63,959 nucleotides of DNA, filler included, from Theionarchaea archaeon (GCA_018992565.1; 6 parts of 6 records of this genome joined end to end with filler, not necessarily neighbours in it); one strand, 5' to 3'. Positions 4,603 through 61,924 are shown, counted from the whole stretch's first letter. A program made the numbers and translations. The notes: generated by a model not told the origin, from the letters alone.

Positions 4603-5159
4603 GACAGTGCCTCCTGAATGTGAGTGAAGGCTTCCACACACTGTGAGAAGTCATTTCCAGTTGCTGGGGTACCGCCGTAGAACACAGTGTCAAAGATATG
4701 GGTTATCCTTTCAAACAGGTCGCTGAATGTATGAGGACGGACCTTCTGCCTGTATTCGTAGTTGGTGAGAGAAGGATGGTACGAAATGACGTCCCTGCTA
4801 TCCAGGAATACAAGGAGTGCCATATACAGAATGCGCACTGCTTCTGCATACTCCTTCTTAGACCCCAGGGTTACCGCTCTCTTGTACAGCCCGTAGTAGT
4901 CCTTCTTTTTTACCAGGATATCTTCTTTTTTCTTCCGGGGAAGGATTATCTTTCCTGATGGCCGGGAAATCCAGGTTGTCACAAAATATATCAGGAGCAG
5001 GGACAGGACGAGAGCGACAATGATCAGCAGTGCTCTGGCAACGGGGAAGGAAAAGAAGGGTGGGTCTTCTGACGTCAGGTACCCGAGCTCTCTCAGAATC
5101 TCCTCCAGATCCTTCTCGATTTCTTCCGGGGTAGGACTACACCATACTTCCATGTACAT
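4599..5159 (-). CDS. DUF4129-like membrane protein
   Basis: TM helix, AVRILY...TNYEY...FDTVFYGG pattern. Confidence 0.75.
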   Translation of the reverse strand: MYMEVWCSPTPEEIEKDLEEILRELGYLTSEDPPFFSFPVARALLIIVALVLSLLLIYFVTTWISRPSGKIILPRKKKEDILVKKKDYYGLYKRAVTLGSKKEYAEAVRILYMALLVFLDSRDVISYHPSLTNYEYRQKVRPHTFSDLFERITHIFDTVFYGGTPATGNDFSQCVEAFTHIQEALS

Positions 5160-5190
5160 CCTCTTCTCTTATCAGTTGATATCCTGTAGG

Positions 5191-6141
5191 TTACAGCACA
5201 GGTTGTGATAGTTGCTGTGTTCTCATCTCCAGATCATACCCCTCTTTTCTCGTCCGCAGGTCAAAGTAGATCAACACTCGAGCACAGTCTGCCATGGGAA
5301 TGAGTAGTCCCTGGGCTACAAGGCCCAGTGCAATGGTCATGACAACCAGAGATCCTTTCATCAAAAACTCCGCGAAGAACGATGTGAGCTGAATGACACT
5401 GGGAATCAGAAAAATGATTATCAAGGCTGCATATATTCTGAAGGTATGCCCTTTTACCATGTTCCAGCTGCGGGTCATTGCTTCAACTATGAAAATCTTT
5501 TCATTGACCATGATGGGATAGGTCGCTGACAGACGAACCCACGCAAATCCCCCAATAAAAGCACCTATTCCTATTGATACTACAATCACGATGACTCCCA
5601 CTATCAGTTCACCTGCGCTGCCTGTAGAAAGTGTGAATGCCACTACAGCGATGGCTGCAGTAACGGGGATTATCATGGCAAGAAGCAGGGCTATCGTTAG
5701 GGCTATGGTGATAAAAACATTGGTTACTCCCAGCCTGAACCAATTCCTCAGGGAGAACCTGTATGCATTTTTCACATCTGCCGTGCCCTCCAGGACGCTG
5801 TCGGAAGCGACTTTGGTGACTGCAGAGAGGGTTACCGGGTATATTATAGCTATCTGAAGAAACGAGAGAAGGATGATAATTGTAGAATACCAGGGAGATG
5901 GGGTCGGAGCGAACTGCTGCTGGACTTGGTAGGCAAAGGGGTCAGTGAACATCTGATACAGCTCCGTAATGCTGTCCTGTCCACCACTTGCAGAGTAGCT
6001 GTAAGCATTCTGCAACAGATAAAACACTGCTAGGGGAAGCTGAGCTGTCACCAGCAGGAGAAAATTCTTTTTATACAGTCTAACAGTGGAATCCAGGAGC
6101 TCACCCAGCCCCATGGGTCGTAAAAACTGATTGCGGTCCAT
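5191..6141 (-). CDS. Polytopic membrane protein (GDPD membrane-domain-like)
   Basis: LRPMGLGELLD start, multiple TMs, YFDLRTRKEGYDL end typical of MoxR clusters. Confidence 0.75.
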   Translation of the reverse strand: MDRNQFLRPMGLGELLDSTVRLYKKNFLLLVTAQLPLAVFYLLQNAYSYSASGGQDSITELYQMFTDPFAYQVQQQFAPTPSPWYSTIIILLSFLQIAIIYPVTLSAVTKVASDSVLEGTADVKNAYRFSLRNWFRLGVTNVFITIALTIALLLAMIIPVTAAIAVVAFTLSTGSAGELIVGVIVIVVSIGIGAFIGGFAWVRLSATYPIMVNEKIFIVEAMTRSWNMVKGHTFRIYAALIIIFLIPSVIQLTSFFAEFLMKGSLVVMTIALGLVAQGLLIPMADCARVLIYFDLRTRKEGYDLEMRTQQLSQPVL

Positions 6142-6170
6142 AAAGTAAGAACCCTTTGAACCATTTAAAC

Positions 6171-6914
6171 TTATGGTTTGTGCCTGTAGTACTTGATGCA
6201 GCTCTTGAGAAAGAGTATGCAGTTCTCTATTCCTCTGGGAGGCTCTATGTGAAGCTTCTCTGCAATTCCGGAGGTAATCTTCGTTGCAATTTCATATGCC
6301 TTGGAAAAGGGGATCTTCTCATATCGAAAAAGAAAGTCTCTCATCAGTTGATATTCTTCGGAGGTGATCTGGTTGAGATACGGGCTCCTGCTGACTGTGT
6401 CGTCATATGATGACTCTCCAAGCTCAAGCTTGTCCAGGCCAACTGCCCTCGTTCTCACAACAATGGTACCTGCTGCATAGTCTCCCAGTCTTTTGGACTT
6501 TGCGTTGAGCATCATGACCACAAATCCTACGAGACATGTACCTGGCCATAAGTCAATATACCGGACAAAATTGCGGGTGAGAGAATCCACAAGGTCTATG
6601 GGAGTGGCATCTTCCTTGATTACTCGCAGCCCTATCATCCTCTTTCCAATAGAGCTGCCATTCAGTGCCAGCTCACTGATGACGAAGTAGCCCCAGGTCA
6701 ACGTTCCAACCACCACATAGATGAGTGCTATAGCGTAGGAAGAGAAGCTTGTGAACCCGAATTGTCTGAGCAAATCCACCGTCACAATCAACCCCATGGA
6801 GGCCAGCAGGATGATGCTATAGTCAACGAGAAAGGCCACACATCGAGAACCTGCCGTGGCAATATCGTAGTACACGGGGACATTCTCTGATGTGGACAGT
6901 GTGAAGTCTTCCAT
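6171..6914 (-). CDS. RDD family membrane protein
   Basis: AGSRCVAFLVD, GSSIGKRMIGLRVI, KRLGDYAAGTIVV. Confidence 0.88.
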   Translation of the reverse strand: MEDFTLSTSENVPVYYDIATAGSRCVAFLVDYSIILLASMGLIVTVDLLRQFGFTSFSSYAIALIYVVVGTLTWGYFVISELALNGSSIGKRMIGLRVIKEDATPIDLVDSLTRNFVRYIDLWPGTCLVGFVVMMLNAKSKRLGDYAAGTIVVRTRAVGLDKLELGESSYDDTVSRSPYLNQITSEEYQLMRDFLFRYEKIPFSKAYEIATKITSGIAEKLHIEPPRGIENCILFLKSCIKYYRHKP

Positions 6915-7022
6915 GAACCTGTTATGGTGTTCAGTTGAAAAAGGTTTTCCTGGCTGTGTGGGCTGGTCCGAATTGTGCATTGTGCAAAAGATACTTATAG
7001 GATTCAGTTGTTTTGCTCTACC

Positions 7023-7184
7023 ATGAACATACAAATAGTCTGGGGTACAGGGAAGGGGACAACTCCCCTGAGCAGTTTTGACCTGGCACTGGCTGAGGCA
7101 GGTATCAGCAACTTTAACCTGATCCCTCTCACCTCTGTGATTCCCAGAGGGGCTACAGTTGAGAAGACTCATGAGTATGTCAAC
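7023..7184 (+). CDS. pdaD: Pyruvoyl-dependent arginine decarboxylase, 5' fragment
   Basis: GTGKGTTPLSSFDLALAEAGISNFNLIPLTSVIP; cut by contig end. Confidence 0.85.
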
Positions 7185-7284
7185 NNNNNNNNNNNNNNNN
7201 NNNNNNNNNNNNNNNNNNNNNNNNNNNNTTAATTAATTAANNNNNNNNNNNNNNNNNNNNNNNNNNNNNNNNNNNNNNNNNNNN
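7185..7284. other. Artificial contig linker (also at 37041-37140, 44284-44383, 51462-51561, 58617-58716)
   Basis: Identical TTAATTAATTAA (stops in all six frames) embedded in N runs. Confidence 0.97.
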
Positions 7285-7345
7285 GGTCCTTTCATCACAG
7301 AACCACGCTACCCACGCACGGGGGAATCCCCAGAAGCAGGTGAAA

Positions 7346-8614
7346 TCAGTAGATTTCATCCTGCTCTTCAATCATGTTTCCAAAGGAAAGGATTTTGAGG
7401 TCAACAGGTTTCTTGACGATATTGCCTATTTTTATCCCCACCAGACGTTCAATCCCTCGTTCTGCAGCAACATCCACGAGCCTCTGAGTAACCACTCCAT
7501 CAAACACCACTATCCTGACATCATCAGTTAGAGATATAGCATCGACCAGGTCTCTTACAGAGACCTTGATCTTTGGAGCATACTTCGCATCCAGGAGGTA
7601 GGCGTCCAGGGTCCCCGGCAGTTTGTCAATGAATTCTTTGAGCCCTTCAAGGCCTTCCGGCTGATTGGGAGGGGGTGGTTCCTCTTTCACTTCTTCTTTC
7701 TGGGATTCTTCTTTCAACTGCTTTTCGAACAGCTCCGTCATGGCCTGCTCTACCGGGATTTTGTTCCTCAGTGCTTTGATAGTCTCTTTCTTGGTCAGGT
7801 CTTCAACCTCTTTACCAGTGGGAGCTCTCGCCACGTAGTCAACTTCGGCAACCTGCATCAGCTCCTTGAAGATCAACTCACCACCTCGATCCCCATCCAC
7901 GAAGCAGGTGACTGTCTTCTCTTTTGAAAGATCAATAATTGTCTTGGGGATGCTGGTGCCTTCCACTGCCACAGCATTTCTAATACCATACCTCAACATA
8001 TTCAGAACATCTGCCCTTCCTTCAACCACAATAATTGCATCAGAATCATCAATGTTAGGCCCTGCTGGTAGGTTGTCCTTGCCGTATTTCGTAATCTCCT
8101 TTATTCGAATTGACTCCTTCACCTCTTCAGTGATCTCCTGAGATTCAGGCAGGACATCAGTAAACATGGACTTGACCAACTGTTTGGCTCTATCAACAAC
8201 ATAGTTTCTCTTAAGGGTCCGGACATCCTCAATCTTGGTGACAGTGATTTTAGCCTCGCAGGGGCCCACCCTGTCAATGGTCTCCAGTGAAGCTCCAAGA
8301 ACTGCAGTCTCGATCTTATCCAGGCTGGATGGAATTGTTATAGAACCCCGGGAACGACCATTACGGGAGTTGACTGTTACACTGATTCTTCCGATTCTCC
8401 CTGTTCTTTGCAGTTCACGCAAATCCAGATCATCTCCCAGCAGCCCTTCTGTCTGCCCAAAAATGGCACCCACCACGTCTGGACGTTCAACAACACCATT
8501 TGCGTCAATTTGTGAGAAAATCAGGTACTTTGTGGTTCCAATATCTGTTCTGGTTCGTTCACCCCCTGCCTTCTTCCGAATAATCTCTCCAATTACAGTT
8601 TTTTGTCTTTTCAT
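7346..8614 (-). CDS. dnaG: Archaeal DnaG-type primase / exosome-associated protein
   Basis: [51 protein letters not shown]...DGDRGG. Confidence 0.96.
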
Positions 8615-31059: not shown

Positions 31060-32484
31060 ATGACCGTGGAAGTGACCTCTATCGGCGATCATGTCAGTAT
31101 AGACGATGATGCCACTCATTTATTGTTCAATACAGCTGATTCAGGATTGTATAGAATAGAACTCATTACCAGAAAACTTTTGGTTCTCATACATGACTAT
31201 GGCATAGAAGCTGCTCGGTCACTCATAAAGGAAGACGATATTGAAAACGTGGCGGAAGAGAAACTTTCAGAACTTAAAGAGAACAAGTTCCTGGACCCAC
31301 TTCCAGAATTTGTTCCCCAGGAGACATCTCCCATCATGTTTGCGTCTCTCAACGTGTCTCATGACTGCAACCTCAACTGCCGCTACTGTTATGGAGGGGG
31401 CGGAACCTATGCAGGAGACCCCTGTCACATGAGTACGGACGTGGGAGAACTGGCTGTTGATCGGCTCTTCGAGTGGTGTGATGATAGCGAACTTCTGGGT
31501 ATCAATTTCTTTGGAGGAGAACCCCTCCTGAACGTGAAATTGATACAGCATCTGGTGTCCTATGCAACTGAAAGAGCACATGCTGAAGAGAAAAAAGTGC
31601 GATTCAGCATGACATCCAATGGCACTCTTTTCACTGACGAGATAGTCGCGTTCCTCAAGGAGAGTAATATAGGAGTGCTGGTGAGCATGGATGGGCCAAA
31701 GCACGTCCAGGATGTCAACCGCCCCTTCAGAAATGGTAAGGGGTCATATGATGTCATTGCAGACCGACTTCAATCCCTCCTGGCTGTCAGGCCTCACCTG
31801 ACTGCCCGTGCAACCCTGACCAAAGATTGTATGTCTCTCAGTACGCTGGTTGATGGGCTCAGAGACGTGGGGTTCACCTATGTACATGTAGAGCCTTTGA
31901 CTCCTTATGAGAACTGCCCATTTGCACTTTCTGAGGAGGATTTTGAAACCCTCAAGGATGAATATGATAAGCTCGGGCATATATTCCTGGAAAATATCCT
32001 GAATGGGACCCCCTTTGGATTCTCAAATATTCTGAGGACCCTGAGTGCTATATACACCTCCGGGGTTCGTCACTATCCATGCGGTGCAGGGAAGAACCTC
32101 ATGGCAGTTGATCCCATGGGTGGAATCTATATATGCCACCGGTTTGTGGGAATGGAAGACTTCTCCATGGGTACCCTGAACGATCCCGATTTTTCTATTC
32201 AAAAGAGACTCCTCCAGGCCCATGTAGATGCGCGAGATGAGTGCAGGAACTGCTGGGCCAGGCACTTATGTGCAGGGAGTTGCTGGTACGATAATTATGT
32301 GTACAGTGGTGCTATTGACAGACCACACAGCCCGAGATGCAGTCTTTTCAAGCATATTGCTGCACTTTCCATGGTTATATTTTCAAAATTACATGAAAAA
32401 GATAAGGCATTACTGGATAAGATGTTCCGGAAGCATGAACCGTCATACAGACGTGGTGAATTTCCGGAGGATGAGAGAACGTGA
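31060..32484 (+). CDS. Radical SAM/SPASM peptide maturase (thioether-forming type)
   Basis: CNLNCRYC, FFGGEPLL, SPASM CGAG...YICHRF...CRNCWARHLCAGSC...C; about 90-aa N-terminal extension (possible RRE). Confidence 0.9.
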   Translation: MTVEVTSIGDHVSIDDDATHLLFNTADSGLYRIELITRKLLVLIHDYGIEAARSLIKEDDIENVAEEKLSELKENKFLDPLPEFVPQETSPIMFASLNVSHDCNLNCRYCYGGGGTYAGDPCHMSTDVGELAVDRLFEWCDDSELLGINFFGGEPLLNVKLIQHLVSYATERAHAEEKKVRFSMTSNGTLFTDEIVAFLKESNIGVLVSMDGPKHVQDVNRPFRNGKGSYDVIADRLQSLLAVRPHLTARATLTKDCMSLSTLVDGLRDVGFTYVHVEPLTPYENCPFALSEEDFETLKDEYDKLGHIFLENILNGTPFGFSNILRTLSAIYTSGVRHYPCGAGKNLMAVDPMGGIYICHRFVGMEDFSMGTLNDPDFSIQKRLLQAHVDARDECRNCWARHLCAGSCWYDNYVYSGAIDRPHSPRCSLFKHIAALSMVIFSKLHEKDKALLDKMFRKHEPSYRRGEFPEDERT

Positions 32485-37040: not shown

Positions 37041-37140
37041 NNNNNNNNNNNNNNNNNNNNNNNNNNNNNNNNNNNNNNNNNNNNTTAATTAATTAANNNN
37101 NNNNNNNNNNNNNNNNNNNNNNNNNNNNNNNNNNNNNNNN

Positions 37141-44201: not shown

Positions 44202-44408
44202 TCAGATGTTTGGAGTGGAACAGGATTTCAGAGGGAAGGGAAAACTCACAGGGTTAACGCCAGAATCCATGGATAATATCTACNNNNNNNNNNNNNNNNN
44301 NNNNNNNNNNNNNNNNNNNNNNNNNNNTTAATTAATTAANNNNNNNNNNNNNNNNNNNNNNNNNNNNNNNNNNNNNNNNNNNNTAAAACGCTGCACCAAC
44401 CTCATACC

Positions 44409-51461: not shown

Positions 51462-51564
51462 NNNNNNNNNNNNNNNNNNNNNNNNNNNNNNNNNNNNNNN
51501 NNNNNTTAATTAATTAANNNNNNNNNNNNNNNNNNNNNNNNNNNNNNNNNNNNNNNNNNNNGGG

Positions 51565-51660
51565 TCACGGGTTGGGTCTGTCAGGACATTCGATAAACCT
51601 GGGCATGCACTCAGTGGGGCGGTATAACCCAGATCCGACCAGTGGTTTTTCCCATTTCAT
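51565..51660 (-). CDS. Short peptide MKWEKPLVGSGLYRPTECMPRFIECPDRPNP, candidate RiPP precursor
   Basis: AGGAGGTGA RBS before ATG; WxxP leader-like motif; two Cys; lies in radical SAM island. Confidence 0.6.
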   Translation of the reverse strand: MKWEKPLVGSGLYRPTECMPRFIECPDRPNP

Positions 51661-51934
51661 TATATCACCTCCTGTGAATAACAGTCCATAAAGGATCCTC
51701 TGCAACTGCAAGATCTGCTCTCTATAGTGAAATAAGTAGTTTTCGCGGACTAAGAATGCGAGGTTTGTGGAATTTTTCAAAGAAATTCTCATATTAATTG
51801 AGAGAATGGTCTTCGTGGATCAGGTATGCGGCCCTGACGGATGATGACAACTACTGTGACAAAGGATGTGAGAAGGGGACAGAGCCCTGACCGAAGTAGA
51901 GCAGTCTTTTTAAGTGGCAATCGGAACTGATAGC

Positions 51935-53497
51935 ATGCGCCTTGCCCTGGTATTTCCTCCTTCCATGCCACCTACGTCTCCACCGTGTGGCATAGCCTAT
52001 CTGAAAGCATACCTGGGAACAGGGAAGGCCTTTGACTTGAACCTTGATTATCACAGTATCCTCATAGATAAAGCACAAAAAGGAGAATTGCCTCCTGTGG
52101 TGTACTGTGAAAGTCCAGAGGATGTAAGAGAAGCTGCCAGGTTCCTCAAGGATTCAGATGCCTTCTTTGATATTGAGGAGTACAACAGGTATATGGCCAC
52201 TTTCTATGACTTTTTCAACAACGTATATCCTCCTTTACAGAGAGCGTGTATGAAGTATCTTGAAGGATCTGCAGGTAGTTGGATGATGTCCTTTCTTGAT
52301 GAATTGACGTCCCCCATAAAGAGATACCATCCAGATGTTGTGGGACTGTCCCAGATGGTCTTTCCTCAGCGTGAGATCTGTATGGCTCTGGCCAGCTACC
52401 TGAAACATGAAGAGTACCATGTAATACTGGGTGGAGCTTCCTTGTGGCACAATCCGGAGAAATATCTATCCTGTAAGAAGTGTGACGTCTCTGAAGTCTT
52501 TGATGCAGTTTTCTATGGAGAAGGTGAGCTGGCCCTAAGGGCATATCTCGATGAAGAAGACCTGGGGAAAATACCCGGTATCGTCTACAAGAAGGGAGCT
52601 GTCATCAGGAATGAGAAAAAGAACCTTGTGGACCTGGATGGTATCCCCTGCCCCGATTACAGCGATTTTCTCTTGGAACAGTATTACACTCCGGAGATTG
52701 TCCTGCCAGTGCTCACGTCACGGGGGTGCTACTGGAAACGGTGCACGTTCTGCACTCACCATAGATCTTATACAAGATACAGAGAACAGTCTATTGGAAA
52801 GGTGCTTTCTGATCTCAAGGAGCTGCAGCATAGACACGGAACATCCCATTTCTTGCTGGCAGACGAAATGGTACATCCACATAGATACAACGAGTTATCT
52901 CAATGCATCATCGAGAGTGGGCTGGATATCAGGATGTACTCAGAGGCAAAGCCCACAAGAGAGTTCACAGGACCACTGTTGGAAGCAATGTATGCAGCAG
53001 GAGTAAGGGCACTGTTGTGGGGAGTGGAATCTGGGACACAGCGCATTCTTGATCTTATGGACAAAGGAATTTGTGTACATGACGTTGAGAAAGTATTGGA
53101 AGCCAGCCATGAAGCGGGAATATGGAATATGGTGTTCATGATCATCGGATATCCCACCCAGACCTGGGAAGAATCTGAACAGGATATTGCTTTCTTACAG
53201 AGGAATGCTCCCTTCGTTTCCACAGTCACAGGCTCGGAGTTCAAGCTCGAAGAAGGTTCCCGCATGTATGAGGCACCTCAGGATTATGGCATCAAAGAGG
53301 CTGGACCAGGAGGAGAATTCTCTCCTGTCTGCCAATATATCCCTGAACACCCACTTGAGAATGCAGATCTTCTTTCTAAGAAGTATGAGGTTGAATTTGT
53401 GGTCTTATCCAGAGGCTCGTGGTATTTTGCCAGAATGAGGGATCACATGCTCCTCTTTGCTGATAGAATGAGTAAGAACCCCCTCAAGAGCCAGTGA
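51935..53497 (+). CDS. B12-binding radical SAM protein
   Basis: LVFPP...PPCGIAYLKAYL, ILGGA, GEGE, SRGCYWKRCTFC, GVESG. Confidence 0.88.
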   Translation: MRLALVFPPSMPPTSPPCGIAYLKAYLGTGKAFDLNLDYHSILIDKAQKGELPPVVYCESPEDVREAARFLKDSDAFFDIEEYNRYMATFYDFFNNVYPPLQRACMKYLEGSAGSWMMSFLDELTSPIKRYHPDVVGLSQMVFPQREICMALASYLKHEEYHVILGGASLWHNPEKYLSCKKCDVSEVFDAVFYGEGELALRAYLDEEDLGKIPGIVYKKGAVIRNEKKNLVDLDGIPCPDYSDFLLEQYYTPEIVLPVLTSRGCYWKRCTFCTHHRSYTRYREQSIGKVLSDLKELQHRHGTSHFLLADEMVHPHRYNELSQCIIESGLDIRMYSEAKPTREFTGPLLEAMYAAGVRALLWGVESGTQRILDLMDKGICVHDVEKVLEASHEAGIWNMVFMIIGYPTQTWEESEQDIAFLQRNAPFVSTVTGSEFKLEEGSRMYEAPQDYGIKEAGPGGEFSPVCQYIPEHPLENADLLSKKYEVEFVVLSRGSWYFARMRDHMLLFADRMSKNPLKSQ

Positions 53498-53552
53498 TGG
53501 TACTGAAAAGAATGAATGCGACTCCAGAGTGCATCACTTTTTCCCCCAGAGA

Positions 53553-54887
53553 TTATGTGCCGAAGAGTCCAGGATCTATTTCTTTCAATTCACTAGCCAG
53601 GAAATCAGCACCGGAACCACGAATAATACCCTCATTCACCCACTTTGCCAGAGTCGTTCTGGCCAGCATCCCTCTTACAGTATGTAAAGTTGCAGCTTTC
53701 AGTAATCGCTCTATGACCAGAGGGTGTTGCCTGAAGTGATTTGTATAGACTGCTGCTGCCTCTTCTGCCCAGGGTTCAGGTTCACCTCTCCCTTTCTCCA
53801 ATGGGGTCCCCGGAAGCGGCTGAAACGGTACGAATTGAGCAGCATCCACTCCCACCTTCACTGCCAGTTCCACACATCTTTCTCGAGCCTCTTCCGGTTC
53901 CCCAGGTAGCCCTGTTATAAAAGATGCCATGGTGAAGATGCCTGCTTTCCTCAAAGCATCACATGTACGCCGATGATCTTCAAATGAGATGGGTTTCCCA
54001 ATATAGTGAGCCAGATCAGGTTCTAGTGTTTCAATACCGATGCCTGCCCTGAGAAAATGTGCACGAGCCAGTGAAGGAATAAGGTCGGGATCTCTCATGA
54101 GATCGTCTGTCCGAGCAGAAAAGTAGAAAAACAAGGGCAAAGGCCCTTTTTCAAGGAGTTCACAGATCTTAATAGCACGAACCGGGTCTACCGTGAAATT
54201 ATCATCCACAATATGAATGATGGTAGCTCCTCGTGTAACGAGCTTCTGGATATCAGTGACCACCACTCCAGGAGAACGTGCCCTCCATATACCATTATAA
54301 AACCGACTGGCCTCACAGAACAGACACTGGTACGGGCACCCCCTGCTGGTCTCCACCAGAGCAATCCCTTCAGGAGGAGGTCCCTGTAAGTCCCTTGCAG
54401 GTTCCAAGAGACTATCCAGCGGCTGGATCAGGGGACGTGAAGGTGTTTTCACCACTGAACCTTCTCTAAGGAACGCCAGCCCTTTGACAGAGTCAGATAT
54501 CCCTTCTCTCAAAATCTCTGCAAAAGTCTCTTCTCCTTCTCCACATACTACAGCATCTGCTCCAGCCTCCAACAGCGGACGTGGCAGCATGGTAGCTCCG
54601 TGGCCACCTGCCACAATGGCACAGGTACCCCCGGCTTCTCTCAAAGCTTTCACAAAGACTGCAGTAGGCTCCACAGAGGTCACCCCCATGGTGGTAACCC
54701 CAATGACATCCGGACATGTCTTTAGAACTGCTGATACAGCCTTTTCAACGTGGTAGTCTGTCATGTCCAGAATCGCTATCTCTGCACTATCCCTGACTCC
54801 TGCAGCCAGAACAGCCAGACTGAATGTGCCAAAATTAAGCCGTGATTCTTCGGGAGGCTTCACCAGTGTAGCCTTCAGGCCCATCAC
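53553..54887 (-). CDS. B12-binding radical SAM protein (class B methyltransferase-like)
   Basis: VAGGHGAT, GEGEETF, ETSRGCPYQCLFC, DDNF, GIET. Confidence 0.88.
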   Translation of the reverse strand: MMGLKATLVKPPEESRLNFGTFSLAVLAAGVRDSAEIAILDMTDYHVEKAVSAVLKTCPDVIGVTTMGVTSVEPTAVFVKALREAGGTCAIVAGGHGATMLPRPLLEAGADAVVCGEGEETFAEILREGISDSVKGLAFLREGSVVKTPSRPLIQPLDSLLEPARDLQGPPPEGIALVETSRGCPYQCLFCEASRFYNGIWRARSPGVVVTDIQKLVTRGATIIHIVDDNFTVDPVRAIKICELLEKGPLPLFFYFSARTDDLMRDPDLIPSLARAHFLRAGIGIETLEPDLAHYIGKPISFEDHRRTCDALRKAGIFTMASFITGLPGEPEEARERCVELAVKVGVDAAQFVPFQPLPGTPLEKGRGEPEPWAEEAAAVYTNHFRQHPLVIERLLKAATLHTVRGMLARTTLAKWVNEGIIRGSGADFLASELKEIDPGLFGT

Positions 54888-56086
54888 AGGTCACCCAGAT
54901 GAATTCCAGCCAGCTCTACCAATCTTTCGGGTGCCTCGTCCCGCAACGTCTGGGCCAGCCATACTGCAGCTTCACAATCTGCTCTGACCAAGCCACAGTA
55001 ATCAGGAGACGGTTCACCATTCCTGTAGAACAGCAGTTGAGAACACGCAAAGCATGGACCTCCACACAGGGGCGCGGCCCAGCACTTCCCGCATGTCTCT
55101 CGAGCATCATAAGGCCTGCCAGCAGTTAGAGCAAATTCACGAGTTCTTTCTCGGCCAATCCCATGAGTGAGGTCTCCGAGTCTGTACTGGTCAAGACCTA
55201 CAAACCTGAAACAGGGATAAAATTCTCCATGAGGACCCACAGCCAGAAAATTCCGCCCTGCTCCACAGGGAACTCTGCTGATTCCAAATCCCAGTACTCG
55301 TTGCAGCTTTTTCATGAACCTGATGAGCCGGGGCATGGATTCACCTTCTGCAATTCTTTTCACGTACTCAGCAACGAATCTTTTATAGTTTAAAATATCC
55401 TCCTCATCCAGGGACAGGTTCGAGGGATACTCCACTGCTACGGGGACCAGTTCAATATTCTGCACTCCTAGGGCACTGATTGCATAGAAAACTTCTGCAG
55501 GATCAGTCTCATGGCAGAGCACTGATGTGGTACTGAAAGAGGGTATATCACACAGGGCTCGCACATAATTCTCAATTCTCTCATAGGTTCCCCTCCCCTG
55601 GCGGTCTTTCCTGTTGTGGTTGTGGATGCGGCTGTTCCCGTCCAGGCTGATCTTTATCACCCAGTTATCTTCTCTCAGCCAGTTCACAACCTCCCCTGTA
55701 AAGGCGGTTCCATTGGTGGTCAGATGAAGGGATATCCTGGTCGATTCAGTGCTGGCTTCGTACTCTCTGGCCCTCCGGCCTATAGTCCTCACTGCAGAAG
55801 GGTTCAATAATGGCTCTCCACTCCCCACATGAATGGACAAGACTCCGGAAGACCAGGAGAAGAAAGAATCGAGTGCTTTCTCCAAGATAGTATTAGAAAT
55901 GACTGCTCTCTGGGGCATCGTACTGCTTTCGGCACAGTAGATACAGTTCATATTACAGGTTCCCGATACATCAAGGGCAAGGGAAGTCACAGGAAAGTCT
56001 CTCTCAATAAAAGAGGGTGGTTCCACTACTGCAGGATCAAATACCACATCAGAACCCAGGAATTCGAATCTATGTTGTTCAGTCAT
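54884..56086 (-). CDS. Radical SAM/SPASM peptide maturase
   Basis: CNMNCIYC, GSGEPLL, CGAG...YPCFRF...CGKCWAAPLCGGPC...C. Confidence 0.88.
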   Translation of the reverse strand: MTEQHRFEFLGSDVVFDPAVVEPPSFIERDFPVTSLALDVSGTCNMNCIYCAESSTMPQRAVISNTILEKALDSFFSWSSGVLSIHVGSGEPLLNPSAVRTIGRRAREYEASTESTRISLHLTTNGTAFTGEVVNWLREDNWVIKISLDGNSRIHNHNRKDRQGRGTYERIENYVRALCDIPSFSTTSVLCHETDPAEVFYAISALGVQNIELVPVAVEYPSNLSLDEEDILNYKRFVAEYVKRIAEGESMPRLIRFMKKLQRVLGFGISRVPCGAGRNFLAVGPHGEFYPCFRFVGLDQYRLGDLTHGIGRERTREFALTAGRPYDARETCGKCWAAPLCGGPCFACSQLLFYRNGEPSPDYCGLVRADCEAAVWLAQTLRDEAPERLVELAGIHLGDL

Positions 56087-56115
56087 GGGGATCCCTTCTC
56101 ATTTTCGTCTCTTAT

Positions 56116-57498
56116 TCACGTTGAGGACTGTTCTCTATCTTTAATTCCTGCCAAATACAGTAGATCTGCTGGGTTATCATAAAACTCTGCGAATATTCTC
56201 AAAGCAAGGTCACAATTGGCACGAGTCAACTCACATTCATCCTCACCACACACGTGGAGCATGGCGGGACACCCTCCTCCGCACAGAGGTAAAGCCCAGC
56301 ATTCCTCACATTCTGCGCGGGGTCCATGTGCTTCTGCCCACTTCCTTCCCTGTTCCACCCAGGTTTGGGGAGGATCATCAATGTTTCCCAGTTCTGTGCC
56401 AGGCGCACCTGCCAGTAGAACACAGGGGAGAACAGTTCCATCTGCTGAAACACCGAAGCTCCATTGAGCAGCTCCACAAAAGGAGACTCGCTGTGTCTTT
56501 TTCAGGAGCTGGAGTACTCTCTGGTTGAATCGATCATCTTGTGGTGGAACTCCTCTCTTCAACCCCTCAATAACAGAATCTGCCACTTCGCCAAGATGGG
56601 CAATATACTGCTCTTTCTCTTTCTCGTTGAGCATCAACGGGTGGTCTTCAGGAAGCCTCACTGCCTGTGCCTTGATCAGGTCCACATCAATTGACCTCAG
56701 GTATGTCTCAGCCTCCTGCAGCGTCCATCCCCGTCTTACCACAGCAGAGCCTCTTACCAGGAGCTTTGGAGGTTGGCGCAGCCTTTCCAGAAATTGCATG
56801 ACCATCCCATGGGTGGGCCCGCCCTGTTTAGTCTTTCGCATGGTATTATGGGCTTCTGCAGGACCATCAATGCTTAAGACGATGCTGAATTTTCCCTCCC
56901 TCAAAACAGTGAATACCTCCTCGTTGACAACAGTCCCATTGGTAGTTATAGCAAAAGTGAACATTCCATCATATTCCTGGGCAGCTTCAACAGCAGCTCT
57001 CATTGCCTTCACATTCAGCAGAGGTTCGCCGCCGTAGAAGTGGATGCAGAATTCTCTCACCCAGGGGAGAGCTTCAGGCAGCACATGAATCAATCGCCGG
57101 GCATGGTCAGGTGATAAATAGAGCACCCTGTCTTCATCATAGCCGAATTGCCCTTCGTCCACAAAGCAGTACTCACACGCCAGATTACAGGTCTGGCTGG
57201 CATTAACCAGGATTTCCACAGTGTCAGATGCTGGATTTACCTCCGCAGTAGAATCCGAACTGAAACAAGAAGAAGAAAAGAGCCCCTTTCTGTACAAGGA
57301 ATCTTTTACCCGTTCCACATGGGTGGATTCCCATCCCAGAGAGGAGCCCGCACGAAACACGTCCATTTTCTGGCACGTTTCCAGGTATATTGCTTCCTCT
57401 GGATCTACAGGTACCACGTCAACAGTTGATGAGCGGAAAGCGTACCAGGAGCCTTTGTGCTCAAAGACATGTAGGGGTCCTGTACCTGTAGAATGCAT
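56116..57498 (-). CDS. Radical SAM/SPASM peptide maturase with N-terminal extension
   Basis: CNLACEYC, FYGGEPLL, CGAA...LPC...CEECWALPLCGGGC. Confidence 0.88.
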   Translation of the reverse strand: MHSTGTGPLHVFEHKGSWYAFRSSTVDVVPVDPEEAIYLETCQKMDVFRAGSSLGWESTHVERVKDSLYRKGLFSSSCFSSDSTAEVNPASDTVEILVNASQTCNLACEYCFVDEGQFGYDEDRVLYLSPDHARRLIHVLPEALPWVREFCIHFYGGEPLLNVKAMRAAVEAAQEYDGMFTFAITTNGTVVNEEVFTVLREGKFSIVLSIDGPAEAHNTMRKTKQGGPTHGMVMQFLERLRQPPKLLVRGSAVVRRGWTLQEAETYLRSIDVDLIKAQAVRLPEDHPLMLNEKEKEQYIAHLGEVADSVIEGLKRGVPPQDDRFNQRVLQLLKKTQRVSFCGAAQWSFGVSADGTVLPCVLLAGAPGTELGNIDDPPQTWVEQGRKWAEAHGPRAECEECWALPLCGGGCPAMLHVCGEDECELTRANCDLALRIFAEFYDNPADLLYLAGIKDREQSST

Positions 57499-57516
57499 AG
57501 TATACTGCACCTGGAA

Positions 57517-57711
57517 TCAGCAAATGCCGCAGGGGCCGGGACCATACGCACATAGCAGCTCATCAGGGGCCTTAGCCACCTGAGTGTTAATGCCCTTGAC
57601 TGCAGCCAGAACGTAGGTTCTCATGTTCTCATCCACGTCAGCATTGCCTTCTTCCAGAGATCTGCGGAAGGCTGGATCAGTTAGAGCCTTCAGGATCAAC
57701 TCTCTTTCCAT
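57517..57711 (-). CDS. NHLP-like RiPP precursor with Cys/Gly/Pro-rich C-terminal core
   Basis: ELILKALTDPAFRRSL leader; ends LLCAYGPGPCGIC; GAGGTGA RBS; TTATATAA box at 57817-57824. Confidence 0.82.
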   Translation of the reverse strand: MERELILKALTDPAFRRSLEEGNADVDENMRTYVLAAVKGINTQVAKAPDELLCAYGPGPCGIC

Positions 57712-57946
57712 CTTATCACCTCTTCGTTCAAGTTCCTCTGTGTGTTAGAACCTGAATCAGGGTTCACTCAGCAGTTCTACCTGCAGGAATCCTGTTCCTT
57801 TCTCTTCGGTTGCCACTTATATAAGCCTTTTCCTTTTTCCTGCAGTGAATTCTTGATTTTTATAGATACCCACTAGAAATGAGAGTTATCTCATATTATT
57901 GCAGTAAAAGTTGTCCGATTCTCTCTATCGGATACAGGAAAAGCAA

Positions 57947-58616
57947 TCAGTGTGTGACAAGCTGTAACGTCTCAAGAATGAAGAGTGCGTCCTCAAGAAA
58001 CGAGTTGGGACATCCTTGATCTTCCAGGTAGGAGAGAAGATATTCCCTGCCCACTCGCAATTGACATGCTTCCAGAATAGCAGCTTTCACCCGGTCCAGT
58101 GACAGACTCTTTTCACCTGTGAAGACATAGGGTGTTTGACCGTACGAGAAGAGTGTTACCTGGGTTACTCCTGGAAGAGCGTCACCTGTCTTCAGTTCTC
58201 CCGTGTAGAACAGGGGGGGTGCTTTCTCATCCAGTCGAACCTGCATCTCCAGGTTACTCTTTCCTCCGTAGGTATATACCCACTCCAGGAGAGGAATAAC
58301 TCTGGAAAGGTAAGGATATTCCCGTTTTAGAGTACAGAATTCTTCATCAGTATATCCCCGTGGAGATATACAATGAGAACACTCCCTTCTGACCGCGCAC
58401 ATGTCACAGCCTCTCTCCTCTTCTCGTCTCCTGATGAGGGAAGAAACAGCATTGCGCAGAATTGTTATATCCTCCCCCACCCTTCCAATACACACTCCAT
58501 GGAAGCACGATTTCACCGCAGTCCCTTCAATTACCAGAAATCCTCTTTCCATGGATGGACATAATGTATTTCCCCAGGTACATGCATCTACAATCAGTTT
58601 TGGCAGCTCATCTCCG
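57947..58616 (-). CDS. C-terminal fragment of a probable radical SAM protein (SPASM-like Cys cluster plus helical tail)
   Basis: Frame open to contig edge: IVDACTWGNTLCP...SCFHG...CDMCAVRRECSHC...FC. Confidence 0.65.
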
Positions 58617-58716
58617 NNNNNNNNNNNNNNNNNNNNNNNNNNNNNNNNNNNNNNNNNNNNTTAATTAATTAANNNNNNNNNNNNNNNNNNNNNNNNNNNN
58701 NNNNNNNNNNNNNNNN

Positions 58717-59152: not shown

Positions 59153-60532
59153 TCATCTCCCTATGACATGGACATCCTCTATTCGCAGTGATGGAAGGAC
59201 TGTATTCTCATACTGCTTGCTGTCGTTTCCCACGTCAGAAATCCTGGTTAGCCAATCAAATGCGACTCCGGAGATCATGCCCTTCACGGGATGCTGTATT
59301 TCTCCATTCCTGATGGCGAATGCTTGAGATAGTTGTGCACTGATCACGCCAGATCCAGCTTGAGGAAATCCAGCCATGGATTCCACCAAGACCCCTTGTG
59401 AGACCTCGGAGACAAGCTCATCCCGCGATTTCGTTCCTGGATGAACCACCAGGTTTGAACAGTAAATCTCAGGCCCTGTACGGTATCCATATCCAATAGT
59501 ATTTCGAACAGTATCAAATCCCTTAGAATATCGAGATGCATTGCCTGTATTTTCCATAGCGAGGGCATGCGCAGACCAGGCATTGTGCAGGTATGATGTT
59601 AGTATCCCTTCGTTCACTACTGGAGCCTCCCCAGACGGATACCCTTCATCATCGAACTTGCGTGAAGAAAATCCATTTCTCAACACTCCATTATCGCTGA
59701 TGCTCAGGAATGGACTTGCTACAGAAGAACCCAGCTTACCTGTCCAGAAAGAACGCCCTGTCATTACTGAGTCTCCCCGCAATGCATCAACAAGGACTTC
59801 TGCCAGCTGGTAGTCCCCTGCCTCCGGAGCCAGAATCACTGTGGTAGTTCCTGTTTCAACTGGTTGAGGATGAAACATCTGTATAACCTTCTCTCCCACT
59901 GACTCTCCCAATGATTCAGGGGAAATGGCTGCCGTGCGGCTACATTCATAATCAGAGCAGATTCCAGTGACTTCATCACCTGATTCACCTACTCCTCCCA
60001 GATATATGGTTGCCCTGGTTCCTTGTTCCTCACCATCAATTCCCAGAGAAGACACCACCCCTCGCCAGCCGCTCGTGAACATGATGACACCACTCTTGAC
60101 ACGCACCCTTGGATCTATCCCTTCTGCTGCAGCCAAGGCCCTGTGGGCGATATCTACTGTCTCCTCTCCGGTAATCTGCTCAATTCTTTTATCATACACA
60201 TCCTGGACAACTGGATAGCTACCTGGTTCAGGCAAGACAAGCCCGGGCAGTACAGAACTCACCCTAGACATGCCAGCTGCCATGTCCCCAGCTTTCATAA
60301 TAGCCTCTTCTGTCATGACATTTGTGCAGGCATATCCTGCTCTGCCGTCCTCCACAACCCGTATTCCCACTCCAGAGTCTTTCTGGCTGGTTTGAGTGAG
60401 TAGTATGGAATTCCTGATAGACACTTCAATAGTCTTTTCATACGTAAAGAAAGCTTCAGCTGCCACGCCTTTTTTCTCCAGGTATCGAACAGTCCTTGAA
60501 CACAATTCACGCAATACATTCCATTCTTCCAT
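59153..60532 (-). CDS. pmbA: TldE/PmbA family protein
   Basis: GVGIRV, FDDEG, TGNA; no HExxxH; paired with TldD. Confidence 0.88.
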   Translation of the reverse strand: MEEWNVLRELCSRTVRYLEKKGVAAEAFFTYEKTIEVSIRNSILLTQTSQKDSGVGIRVVEDGRAGYACTNVMTEEAIMKAGDMAAGMSRVSSVLPGLVLPEPGSYPVVQDVYDKRIEQITGEETVDIAHRALAAAEGIDPRVRVKSGVIMFTSGWRGVVSSLGIDGEEQGTRATIYLGGVGESGDEVTGICSDYECSRTAAISPESLGESVGEKVIQMFHPQPVETGTTTVILAPEAGDYQLAEVLVDALRGDSVMTGRSFWTGKLGSSVASPFLSISDNGVLRNGFSSRKFDDEGYPSGEAPVVNEGILTSYLHNAWSAHALAMENTGNASRYSKGFDTVRNTIGYGYRTGPEIYCSNLVVHPGTKSRDELVSEVSQGVLVESMAGFPQAGSGVISAQLSQAFAIRNGEIQHPVKGMISGVAFDWLTRISDVGNDSKQYENTVLPSLRIEDVHVIGR

Positions 60533-60535
60533 GGG

Positions 60536-61924
60536 TTAACCTCCACTTCCTCCTACCATAATGTGACACCTGATAGCGGGGACCATACGTCCCTGAACAG
60601 CAAATTGATACTTCCCACATGCACCAGGGCGCAGTACAGGCGTATCGCTCACTGCGTCAATGGTCCTGAATACCTCAATGGCGTTTCCAGCTACATTTGC
60701 TCCTCGGAACTCCTCCGTGAGCTCTCCTTTTCTAATTGCCTGAGCACTCTGAAATCCAAAGGTGAAATCAGCATTAGAATCTGCCTGCCCTCCAAACGTG
60801 CCTTCCAGAAATAATCCGTCGTCAACGGTTTCAATCATTTCTTCAACAGCATACTCCCCAGGTTCAATGCCAATGTTAGTCTGCCTGATGAGGGGCTCGA
60901 CGCTGTAATCCCAGGCATGTGCATTTCCTGTGGGCTGGACTCCTGCAGCTGAAGCACTTTCCCGGTCATGCATGAATGATTTCAGGACTCCCTTTTCTAT
61001 CAAGGTAGTGCGGGTGCAGGGCGTCCCTTCATCATCATAGAAGGAAAATCCCAGCCCTCCTGGTATATGTCCATCATCGTAGATAGTCACTAATTCAGAA
61101 CACACAGGTCTATCGAGTTGAGTCCCAAATCCTCCTCCTGCCATGGCCAGGTCTGCCTCCAGGGGATGGCCAATCGCCTCATGGAGGAGAGTGGCGCACA
61201 ACGTAGGATCAATAATCACACGGGCCATGCCCGAAGGCGGGGTTCTGGCATCCAGCAGATGCACAGCCTTTCTTGCCACCGCTTCGCCCAGTTCTTCAGG
61301 CGAGGTCCTGTCGAAGATTTCCCACCCCCCAGCATGTCCCACATTATCAGAGGCGGGACATACAACACCATTGCGCCTGGCCACCACATTCACAAACAAC
61401 ATGACTTTGGTGATATGCTGAGAAATGCGCGACCCTTCTGAACTGGCAAAATACCTGTGATCTTCCATACTAATGTAGGTTACTCTACAGTCCTTGATCT
61501 CTGGTCCTGCACTCAGTGCACTCCTGCAGGCCCTCAAAGGGATATCAACTATCTCTTCGGCAGAATCGCAAGGAGAAACCTTCACTGGAGCATAAAGCGT
61601 GTCAACAACCGCATTCTGCGGCTGAATGTCAGCACTTCCCTGGGAAACCTGTGAAATAGCTCTGCTCAGGTCTGCAGCTTCCCTGGCTACACGTTCCACC
61701 TGACGTGCCTCACAGGTATTGGACGAACTGAATCCCCAGCATCCATTCTCCACGCGGCTTCTAGCCCCTACACCCTGAGCAGTAAGTGTGGAAAACTGCT
61801 GAACCACATTATTCTTGACAGCACATGCAATCACCTTCCGCTTCTGGCCACGGATTTGTAGCAAATGCTCAGGACGAGAACAGGTATCGATGCAACGTTC
61901 CAAAATGTCCAACATGCATGTCAA
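60536..61924 (-). CDS. tldD: TldD family metalloprotease
   Basis: LLHEAIGHPLEAD, YDDEG, TGNA, RQTN, CGK. Confidence 0.92.
   Translation of the reverse strand: MTCMLDILERCIDTCSRPEHLLQIRGQKRKVIACAVKNNVVQQFSTLTAQGVGARSRVENGCWGFSSSNTCEARQVERVAREAADLSRAISQVSQGSADIQPQNAVVDTLYAPVKVSPCDSAEEIVDIPLRACRSALSAGPEIKDCRVTYISMEDHRYFASSEGSRISQHITKVMLFVNVVARRNGVVCPASDNVGHAGGWEIFDRTSPEELGEAVARKAVHLLDARTPPSGMARVIIDPTLCATLLHEAIGHPLEADLAMAGGGFGTQLDRPVCSELVTIYDDGHIPGGLGFSFYDDEGTPCTRTTLIEKGVLKSFMHDRESASAAGVQPTGNAHAWDYSVEPLIRQTNIGIEPGEYAVEEMIETVDDGLFLEGTFGGQADSNADFTFGFQSAQAIRKGELTEEFRGANVAGNAIEVFRTIDAVSDTPVLRPGACGKYQFAVQGRMVPAIRCHIMVGGSGG

Follow-up and report, generated by a model that had tools for sequence, protein, structure and literature searches.

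The closest described counterparts of the locus studied here are the ranthipeptide and SCIFF systems (PapB with freyrasin, CteB with thermocellin, 5wgg/5why, and QhpD with QhpC), in which a radical S-adenosylmethionine (SAM) domain is combined with the full cysteine pattern of a SPASM domain. The chemistry of PapB, CteB and QhpD is taken here from general knowledge and from NCBIfam and PDB descriptions. The locus is a four-gene cassette on the minus strand, positions 53553 to 57824, of a stretch of DNA of 63,959 bases from Theionarchaea archaeon (GCA_018992565.1), and this whole stretch is called the window in the following. The cassette encodes a 64-residue precursor peptide (57517-57711), two radical SAM/SPASM enzymes, SPA (464 residues, CteB-like, 56116-57510) and SPB (400 residues, a paralogue of SPA, 54884-56086), and a cobalamin-binding (B12) radical SAM enzyme, B12a (444 residues, GTG start, class B fold, 53553-54887). 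Like CteB, SPA has an N-terminal domain that is predicted to be RRE-like, and as in ranthipeptides the precursor has an obligatory Cys. Unlike the ranthipeptide and SCIFF systems, the cassette has two obligate paralogous SPASM enzymes and not one, plus an obligate B12 radical SAM enzyme. Its leader differs from those of SCIFF and PapA in appearing NHLP-clan-like, and the precursor has one conserved Cys in place of a CX3D repeat or a six-Cys pattern, with an Asp four residues before this Cys and not after it. New peptide chemistry comes mainly from radical SAM/SPASM enzymes and from radical SAM enzymes that depend on B12, and to our knowledge almost nothing is known experimentally of such products in archaea.

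Two further groups of systems share single traits with the cassette. The NHLP or proteusin systems (TIGR03793; polytheonamide-type) have the leader motif A-L-T-D-P-x-F-R-x-x-L and B12 radical SAM enzymes in the cluster. Unlike in those systems, no GG is found before the conserved Cys in the aligned precursors, there is no C39 transporter, and epimerase families are absent from the best 25 of the 67 (SPA) and 60 (SPB) NCBIfam families matched. Two SPASM-type genes side by side near a small peptide gene are also seen for HxsB/HxsC and ScmE/ScmF (SynChlorMet), the pairing of which is given by NCBIfam names and general knowledge. The precursors and partners of these systems differ from ours, and the scores are low, with 72-83 bits for HxsB against a cut-off of 370 and 54.5 bits for ScmE against 400 for the SPB orthologue of locus L002.

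In archaea, CrpC of Methanococcus voltae is a radical SAM/SPASM enzyme that contains an RRE and introduces ranthionine-type thioethers into the neighbouring gene product CrpA, according to the accessible part of PMC13692751. Unlike in our cassette, the substrate described in that part is a large cysteine-rich repeat protein and the enzyme stands alone, with no B12 radical SAM enzyme mentioned there; the CrpC model TIGR04463 matches SPB weakly (55.9 bits, cut-off 525). Furthermore, ranthipeptide- and sactipeptide-type clusters have been predicted across archaea by genome mining (PMC12144867, accessible part). The first-pass annotation of this DNA had called such a pathway undescribed in archaea. 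This is too broad with regard to ranthipeptide-type clusters and to CrpC. As regards this particular gene set, no description of the precursor, SPA, SPB and B12a together was found in the literature, although the supplementary cluster tables of PMC12144867 could list the locus. The tail motifs LLCANGG, GPCGIA and GPCGIC have 0 literature occurrences each, ELLCA matched unrelated words only, and none of the four cassette proteins falls under an equivalog model of NCBIfam (release June 2026). The cassette is real, conserved, uncharacterised and peptide-maturing; it also occurs outside archaea, and it is not the earliest prediction of this type in them.

A word-indexed search with the precursor gave 30 relatives. 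A profile search of 1.84 billion representatives gave 104 proteins at E <= 0.001 and 62 at E <= 1e-10, and judged by these matches the precursor family is genuine, though rare. Genome and metagenome collections were scanned as well, giving 8 and 51 loci, respectively, and the window proteins were compared with every open reading frame (ORF) of each locus. L001, L010 and L011 coincide with the window contig, L002 and L005 and do not enter the counts below.

Precursor, SPA, SPB and B12a were found in this order in 18 of the 22 loci with a precursor detected by phmmer and at least 4 kb downstream, which means that the peptide is conserved together with the enzymes. A peptide lacking such conservation, one of the outcomes named in the first-pass annotation as refuting it, is therefore not what was seen. 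The four exceptions are three orphan extra precursor copies (L005, L019, L027) and L007, which has SPA and SPB without B12a. SPA directly follows the precursor in 35/40 loci with at least 600 nt downstream. Ten loci in which the precursor matched weakly or in part stand outside these counts, and two of them (L058 and L060) also have the three enzymes. Some loci are near-copies (L003/L036/L038/L043/L044 and L028/L030), and merging near-identical loci by eye leaves about 13 distinct lineages. Because every gene has strong homologues and the order is kept, the four-gene set is not due to chance. The all-radical-SAM operon of peptide plus maturases proposed earlier is supported.

A joint tree of 18 SPA and 18 SPB sequences separates the two enzymes into two groups, each with 100% support in the Shimodaira-Hasegawa-like approximate likelihood ratio test (SH-aLRT), and the main sub-groups within the SPA half are broadly mirrored in the SPB half. 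These two mirrored orthologue groups indicate that the duplication giving SPA and SPB predates the spread of the cassette and that both genes travel together. In an all-against-all comparison of 241 flanking ORFs no further family was common across lineages; shared families occurred only among near-identical loci. A Lon-like protease (L028/L030) is lineage-specific, as is an ABC ATPase (L025/L005).

The small ORF might instead not be the substrate at all, the radical SAM enzymes acting on a lipid, a cofactor or another protein with the peptide gene merely adjacent. We consider this very improbable. Precursor and enzymes are adjacent and co-oriented in the 35/40 loci, in both bacterial and archaeal lineages, the genes are tightly spaced (6 nt from precursor to SPA, 29 nt from SPA to SPB, and a 4-nt overlap of the B12a start with the SPB stop), and SPA carries a putative peptide-binding domain of the RRE type. 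What speaks for it is that archaea use many B12 radical SAM and SPASM enzymes for lipids and cofactors, as far as the accessible parts of published accounts go, and that about 39 places in the host genome match the SPA profile.

Most loci with a named organism are bacterial. The named records are Smithellaceae, Chlorobium ferrooxidans DSM 13031, Rhodocyclaceae, Clostridia, Anaerolineales, Aminicenantes and one metagenome-assembled genome (MAG) labelled 'uncultured Thermococci archaeon'. From the labels of proteins, Nitrospirae and an archaeon, Candidatus Pyrohabitans (Hydrothermarchaeota), can be added. Chlorobium ferrooxidans DSM 13031 (locus L006) is a cultured carrier. The closest database copies of the precursor are labelled Theionarchaea and Candidatus Methanofastidiosia. 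Within the host class the precursor was found in 2/133 genomes, both of one genus, and in 0/99 of the higher-quality genomes. As far as sequence matches can tell, the cassette is patchy and common to bacteria and archaea, and it is no archaeal invention; nor is it a speciality of archaea, given the bacterial copies in Smithellaceae, Chlorobium ferrooxidans, Rhodocyclaceae and Clostridia. It is a compact set of four genes that is rare, co-conserved, present in distant anaerobes and apparently transcribed in sediments.

The leader of the window precursor starts ELILKALTDPAFRRSL and the tail is LLCAYGPGPCGIC. Six leader positions (A9, L10, P13, F15, R16 and L19) are invariant in 20 aligned precursors, and the archaeal leaders are without a 12-residue segment found in the bacterial ones. 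When 20 relatives were scanned against NCBIfam, 19 matched NF038399 (best E 1.5e-7), 16 matched TIGR03793 (best E 3.6e-4), 13 matched TIGR04509 and 9 matched nitrile hydratase alpha; with Pfam, 16/20 matched Frankia_peptide and 14/20 NHase_alpha. The leader did not reach the cut-off when tested with the NHLP models, and no relative of the precursor scored above any curated cut-off. The leader is therefore best described, from profile resemblance, as a distant member of the NHLP clan that belongs to no curated family. This retains the NHLP type of leader proposed earlier at the level of the clan but not of a family. In the ESM Atlas the nearest clusters to the precursor are lantibiotic-type precursors, with scores of 0.79-0.86 that lie below the level that counts and serve as a lead only.

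In the tail, Cys54 is the sole invariant residue, in 20/20 and in 31/31 aligned precursors. It ends the motif D-E-L-L-C in the window, and Asp50, four residues before it, is nearly invariant. The ranthipeptide trait of a Cys donor in the modified region is thus present, and the SCIFF trait of six Cys in about 45 residues is not, the window peptide having 3 Cys in 64 residues and many relatives having 1-2. The archaeal tails have the form LLCA(Y/N/S/P)GPGPCGIC. Across all relatives the tails after the Cys are diverse, the commonest being LLCANGGPCGIA and others including CACSVTAVPTVRKKA, IFCIIDDDDKPVLA and IFCVQPANPGGPYYA. Position 56 is variable among relatives (Y, N, S, P, C, I and others), so the earlier description as a Cys/Tyr peptide is supported for Cys54 and not for the Tyr. 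A splicease (PlpX-like) reading of the A-Y-G motif, judged by what is generally known of spliceases, was rejected as a general mechanism since Tyr56 is not conserved.

More than one precursor copy may occur in a genome. In the same-genus genome G033 (L010, L011, L012), and likewise at L019 with L015, there are 2-3 precursor copies of which one stands beside the enzymes. The orphan copies have other tails, ILCANTTCKEVMA and ILCMPPPDTPAIC.

The two tandem SPASM enzymes, of which one had been described as extended at the N-terminus, were recovered as such. Pfam and NCBIfam scans matched Radical_SAM in SPA, SPB and B12a, and the SPASM domain TIGR04085 in SPB (52.5 bits, cut-off 27). Both SPA and SPB have the CX3CX2C motif, starting at C108 and C44, respectively, plus the pattern GX4C...CX2CX5CX3C...C. 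The CX3CX2C and SPASM cysteines are invariant in 18 aligned SPA sequences, and the SPB orthologues likewise all keep the cysteines of the core motif. For both enzymes the best NCBIfam families are the PapB ranthipeptide maturase, the nif11-peptide radical SAM enzyme, QhpD and the SCIFF maturase. The SCIFF maturase gives 127.7 (SPA) and 152.1 (SPB) bits against a cut-off of 425, and QhpD 108.4 and 158.6 bits against 453. Neither enzyme is a member of PapB, CteB/SCIFF or QhpD at the family level; kinship at the superfamily level is clear. Weaker but significant matches were found with cyclophane-, ether- and epimerase-type SPASM families.

CteB (5wgg) is the best solved relative of both SPA (E 1.3e-27) and SPB (E 2.7e-35). 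An AlphaFold model of SPA, with a mean pLDDT (predicted value of the local distance difference test) of 86.8, superimposes on CteB over 456 columns with a template modelling (TM) score of 0.71-0.78. Residues 13-74 of the model form three strands followed by three helices, which is the layout of the RRE peptide-binding domain, and the N-terminal domain of SPA (about 13-74) is accordingly predicted to be RRE-like. About 100 residues precede the radical SAM motif in SPA and 43 in SPB, which has no N-terminus of RRE length. Many bacterial SPA orthologues are without the extension, so leader recognition cannot rest on it everywhere. A complex prediction for SPA and SPB scored 0.11 against a mark of 0.32 with controls not run, which is evidence neither for nor against a complex.

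B12a combines a B12-binding domain (55.2 bits, cut-off 32.1) with Radical_SAM (79 bits) in Pfam. It has the N-terminal B12-binding domain and the radical SAM domain with a CX3CX2C motif that are expected of a class B (cobalamin-dependent) radical SAM methyltransferase, and C184, C188 and C191 are invariant in 16 orthologues. The best matches of its structure model (pLDDT 92.3) are TsrM, MgmA, CysS and TokK.

The single B12 radical SAM gene described previously is one of three in the host lineage, where the cluster runs past 53553..57824 on both sides. On the plus strand and convergent with B12a lies B12b (51914-53497, 527 residues), a B12-binding radical SAM enzyme and lineage accessory. The family it matches best is TIGR03975 (RiPP maturation radical SAM C-methyltransferase; RiPP, ribosomally synthesised and post-translationally modified peptide) with 156 bits, and B12a reaches 41.5 bits, the cut-off of this family being 281.85. 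A convergent B12b gene after B12a is also found in the relatives L013, the precursor of which is 94% identical, and L017, and not in L002 and L015. Upstream of the precursor, on the minus strand, an ORF of 201 residues (57947-58616) has its frame open to the contig edge. It holds a C-terminal domain only, which belongs to no known family, with the Cys motif CX2CX6CX2C, and it is homologous to the C-terminus of B12 radical SAM enzymes of 798 (L013) and 790 (L017) residues that precede the precursor there. This homology and the open frame indicate the 3' fragment of a third B12 radical SAM gene, for a protein of about 790 residues, cut by the assembly. Further upstream in the longer contig of L013 (1-3750), the closest relative, are a 413-residue radical SAM enzyme and a 467-residue B12-domain radical SAM enzyme on the opposite strand, which brings this neighbourhood to seven radical SAM genes in 13 kb.

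Upstream of the precursor gene a box resembling a B recognition element and TATA element, AAAGGCTTATATAAG, is found at 57816-57830, and a Shine-Dalgarno-like GAGGTGAT at 57715-57722, 3 nt before the ATG; both are on the minus strand. Thus the promoter, the 64-residue peptide with its quoted leader and tail, and the co-oriented genes of the first-pass annotation are all present, including the overlap of B12a with SPB. A box similar to AAAGGCTTATATAAG precedes the precursor in 6/6 archaeal relatives aligned, and GAGGTGAT before the precursor ATG is invariant in 7/7 aligned archaeal upstream regions.

Most of the stretch is present in 16 DNA runs, and 5-10% of its words recur in four metatranscriptome runs of two studies. 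Contigs from these RNA libraries cover 57347-57785, from the 5' untranslated region of the precursor gene through the gene itself to about 165 nt into SPA. One of them ends at 57785 into adapter letters, 31-45 nt downstream of AAAGGCTTATATAAG. A single RNA-library piece lies at 53561-53745; the enzyme genes are otherwise uncovered, which is no evidence that they are silent. This cover fits a strongly transcribed precursor, and the cassette is probably expressed.

The ends of RNA-library contigs of the two studies (X17, X20) lie no more than 4 nt apart, at 57347-57351, about 165 nt into SPA. This shared stop hints weakly at a transcript end or a processing site after the precursor, and inspection by eye showed no obvious oligo-T tract or hairpin near 57347-57351.

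Taken by analogy with the families named above, the four genes probably form one operon for the maturation of a ribosomal peptide, a thioether-type (ranthipeptide-like) RiPP variant built around one Cys, with B12-dependent C-methylation. In this scheme an archaeal promoter would drive the 64-residue precursor, and a leader of about 50 residues, NHLP-clan-like, would dock the peptide on the enzymes, with the RRE-like N-terminal domain of SPA as the likely site here. SPA and SPB, as an old paralogous pair of the CteB/PapB/QhpD kind, would most likely form thioethers from Cys54 to nearby side-chain or backbone carbons. In CteB-type enzymes the substrate Cys reportedly ligates the auxiliary cluster. 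The second and third Cys of the tail, where present, may also be thioether donors. B12a would most likely add one or more C-methyl groups, and in the host lineage B12b and the truncated upstream B12 radical SAM enzyme may add further modifications. From these resemblances we infer not only the thioether and methyl chemistry but also the acceptor residues, the end of the leader, its removal and the role of the product. The cross-linked and methylated product proposed by the first-pass annotation thus agrees with the family resemblances, and its chemistry is not fixed by any equivalog match.

Several points weigh against this scheme. NF038399 is the one NCBIfam model that the window precursor matches (E 0.0097), and the score of 16 bits falls short of its cut-off of 40. 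PapB gives 154.8 bits for SPA and 199 for SPB, with a cut-off of 340, and B12a matches no equivalog (BchE 129.6 bits versus 481, ApyD 123 versus 750). As no enzyme reaches an equivalog cut-off, the chemistry is not confidently transferable. The non-methylating AprD4 and OxsB match the B12a model equally well, and a B12-domain radical SAM enzyme, ThnL, forms a thioether (PMC9407657, accessible part). Many relatives have a single Cys, for example IFCIIDDDDKPVLA, and L052, which has this type of tail, carries SPA, SPB and B12a. Two thioether synthases for one thiol are odd, so one SPASM enzyme may act otherwise. Some tails extend only 1-4 residues past the Cys, and with tails as short as these the target may sit in the conserved D-x-L-L-C motif and not in a 'core'. 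No protease or exporter is conserved with the cassette among the 241 flanking ORFs compared. Additionally, the RNA-library contigs are no proof of transcription, since DNA may contaminate these libraries, and they show no level, strand or ends. Two SPASM enzymes for one thiol, nearly absent tails and the lack of a protease or exporter kept with the cassette and of a C39 peptidase match leave room for readings in which a small protein is modified or the chemistry is new.

The former of these readings takes the precursor as an intact intracellular small protein, the C-terminal Cys motif of which is cross-linked or methylated in place, like QhpC by QhpD or CrpA by CrpC. Such a product might be a redox, metal-binding or cofactor-like module. 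The 'leader' is conserved at full length across phyla with a tail of sometimes 1-4 residues, no protease or exporter is conserved in any lineage, no C39 peptidase turned up in the 88%-complete genome, and QhpD is among the top families of both SPA and SPB. Thioether cross-links placed in a protein by an archaeal SPASM enzyme are documented in the accessible part of PMC13692751, and the tandem units of the protein P0031, described below, also fit. We nevertheless hold an intact small protein to be unlikely. The leader resembles those of the NHLP clan and of lantibiotic-type precursors, which are normally cleaved; hypervariable tails and orphan precursor copies (L005/L011, L012, L019) are the usual pattern of a diversifying core; and RiPP leader peptidases and exporters are often encoded elsewhere in the genome.

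P0031 is a predicted membrane protein of 769 residues, seen as a database representative with no genomic context. Its C-terminal third consists of four tandem leader-plus-tail units behind the membrane-protein body, three of which end LLCA[NH]GGPCGI[GA] and the last LLCANGGPCGMFKPGL. Going by its sequence, P0031 may be a precursor of several units, or it may point to the unit serving as a protein domain.

A proteusin-like pathway, hinted at in the first-pass annotation, would assign the enzymes differently. SPASM epimerases or enzymes making C-C or ether cross-links would be combined with B12 radical SAM enzymes acting as PoyB/C-like C-methyltransferases on aliphatic residues of the tail. The NHLP-clan-like leader and the two SPASM enzymes kept with single-Cys tails agree with it, as do TIGR03975 as the best family of B12b and the weaker cyclophane-, ether- and epimerase-type matches. 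Against this, the four best families and the best solved structure of SPA and SPB are all thioether formers, the sole invariant residue of the tail is a Cys, the 25 best families listed for either enzyme include no epimerase, and both B12 enzymes stay below the cut-off of TIGR03975. We regard a pathway of this kind as quite improbable.

The thioether-type scheme leaves a biochemical question, namely why one conserved Cys needs two thioether-type enzymes plus a cobalamin enzyme. One answer, which we offer tentatively and rate at less than an even chance, is an undescribed RiPP or small-protein family of bacteria and archaea in which the target is the invariant Cys of D-x-L-L-C and at least one enzyme carries out a reaction new to its family. 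Single-Cys members keep two CteB-like SPASM enzymes and a B12 radical SAM enzyme, so at least one of these would do a new reaction. Candidates are a second cross-link that is not a thioether, modification of the thioether once formed, and B12 chemistry on or beside the Cys. If this is true, the theionarchaeal version, with three B12 radical SAM enzymes for a tail of 11 residues, would rank with the most densely modified of known small peptides.

The cassette lies on contig C90 of a MAG, 7,055 bp long and spanning 51562-58616 of the window. The host assembly has 2.8 Mb in 154 contigs and is 88% complete. Its archaeal origin is shown by a split RpoA2 subunit (494.7 bits, family cut-off 420.65); the same search gave some match in all 14 control genomes, with 4 of them exceeding the cut-off. 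The window is made of MAG contigs chained by linkers of 44 N, TTAATTAATTAA and 44 N, found at 7185-7284, 37041-37140, 44284-44383, 51462-51561 and 58617-58716. Further scaffold gaps of 100 N are at 1703, 33150, 35179, 39569, 42856 and 48741. Gene adjacency across these linkers and gaps is not real. In agreement with the first-pass annotation, the 7,055-bp contig showed no domain of the YcaO, lanthionine synthetase or C39 type, and Peptidase_C39 (PF03412) had no match anywhere in the 88%-complete host genome. A TldD/PmbA pair (59153-61924) was rejected as the leader protease because it lies on the next contig, behind a linker. No convincing small ORF was seen upstream of 51914 as a second precursor for the convergent B12b, and an Rfam scan of the window gave no match.

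Outside the cassette, 39 places in the host genome match the SPA profile at E <= 1e-10. Many of these are tandem pairs of radical SAM genes of 440-560 residues (contigs C13, C30, C52, C64, C105, C128, C154 and C29), and one lies inside the window, in an ORF at 31060-32484 on the plus strand. Counted by profile matches, this expansion of SPASM-type, maturase-like genes is very large for an archaeon of 2.8 Mb, and it points to peptide modification as an important and so far unstudied side of theionarchaeal biology.

A second related cluster, L065, is found in the same genome on contig C59 (4703-7847) and is without SPB. On the minus strand it has a precursor-like ORF (6113-6574) with an NHLP-like stretch and the end ...KLPIVPIFCAAY. 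An SPA paralogue (4703-6100, 244 bits to the SPA profile) directly follows this ORF, and a B12-domain-like radical SAM gene (6519-7847) stands in divergent orientation.

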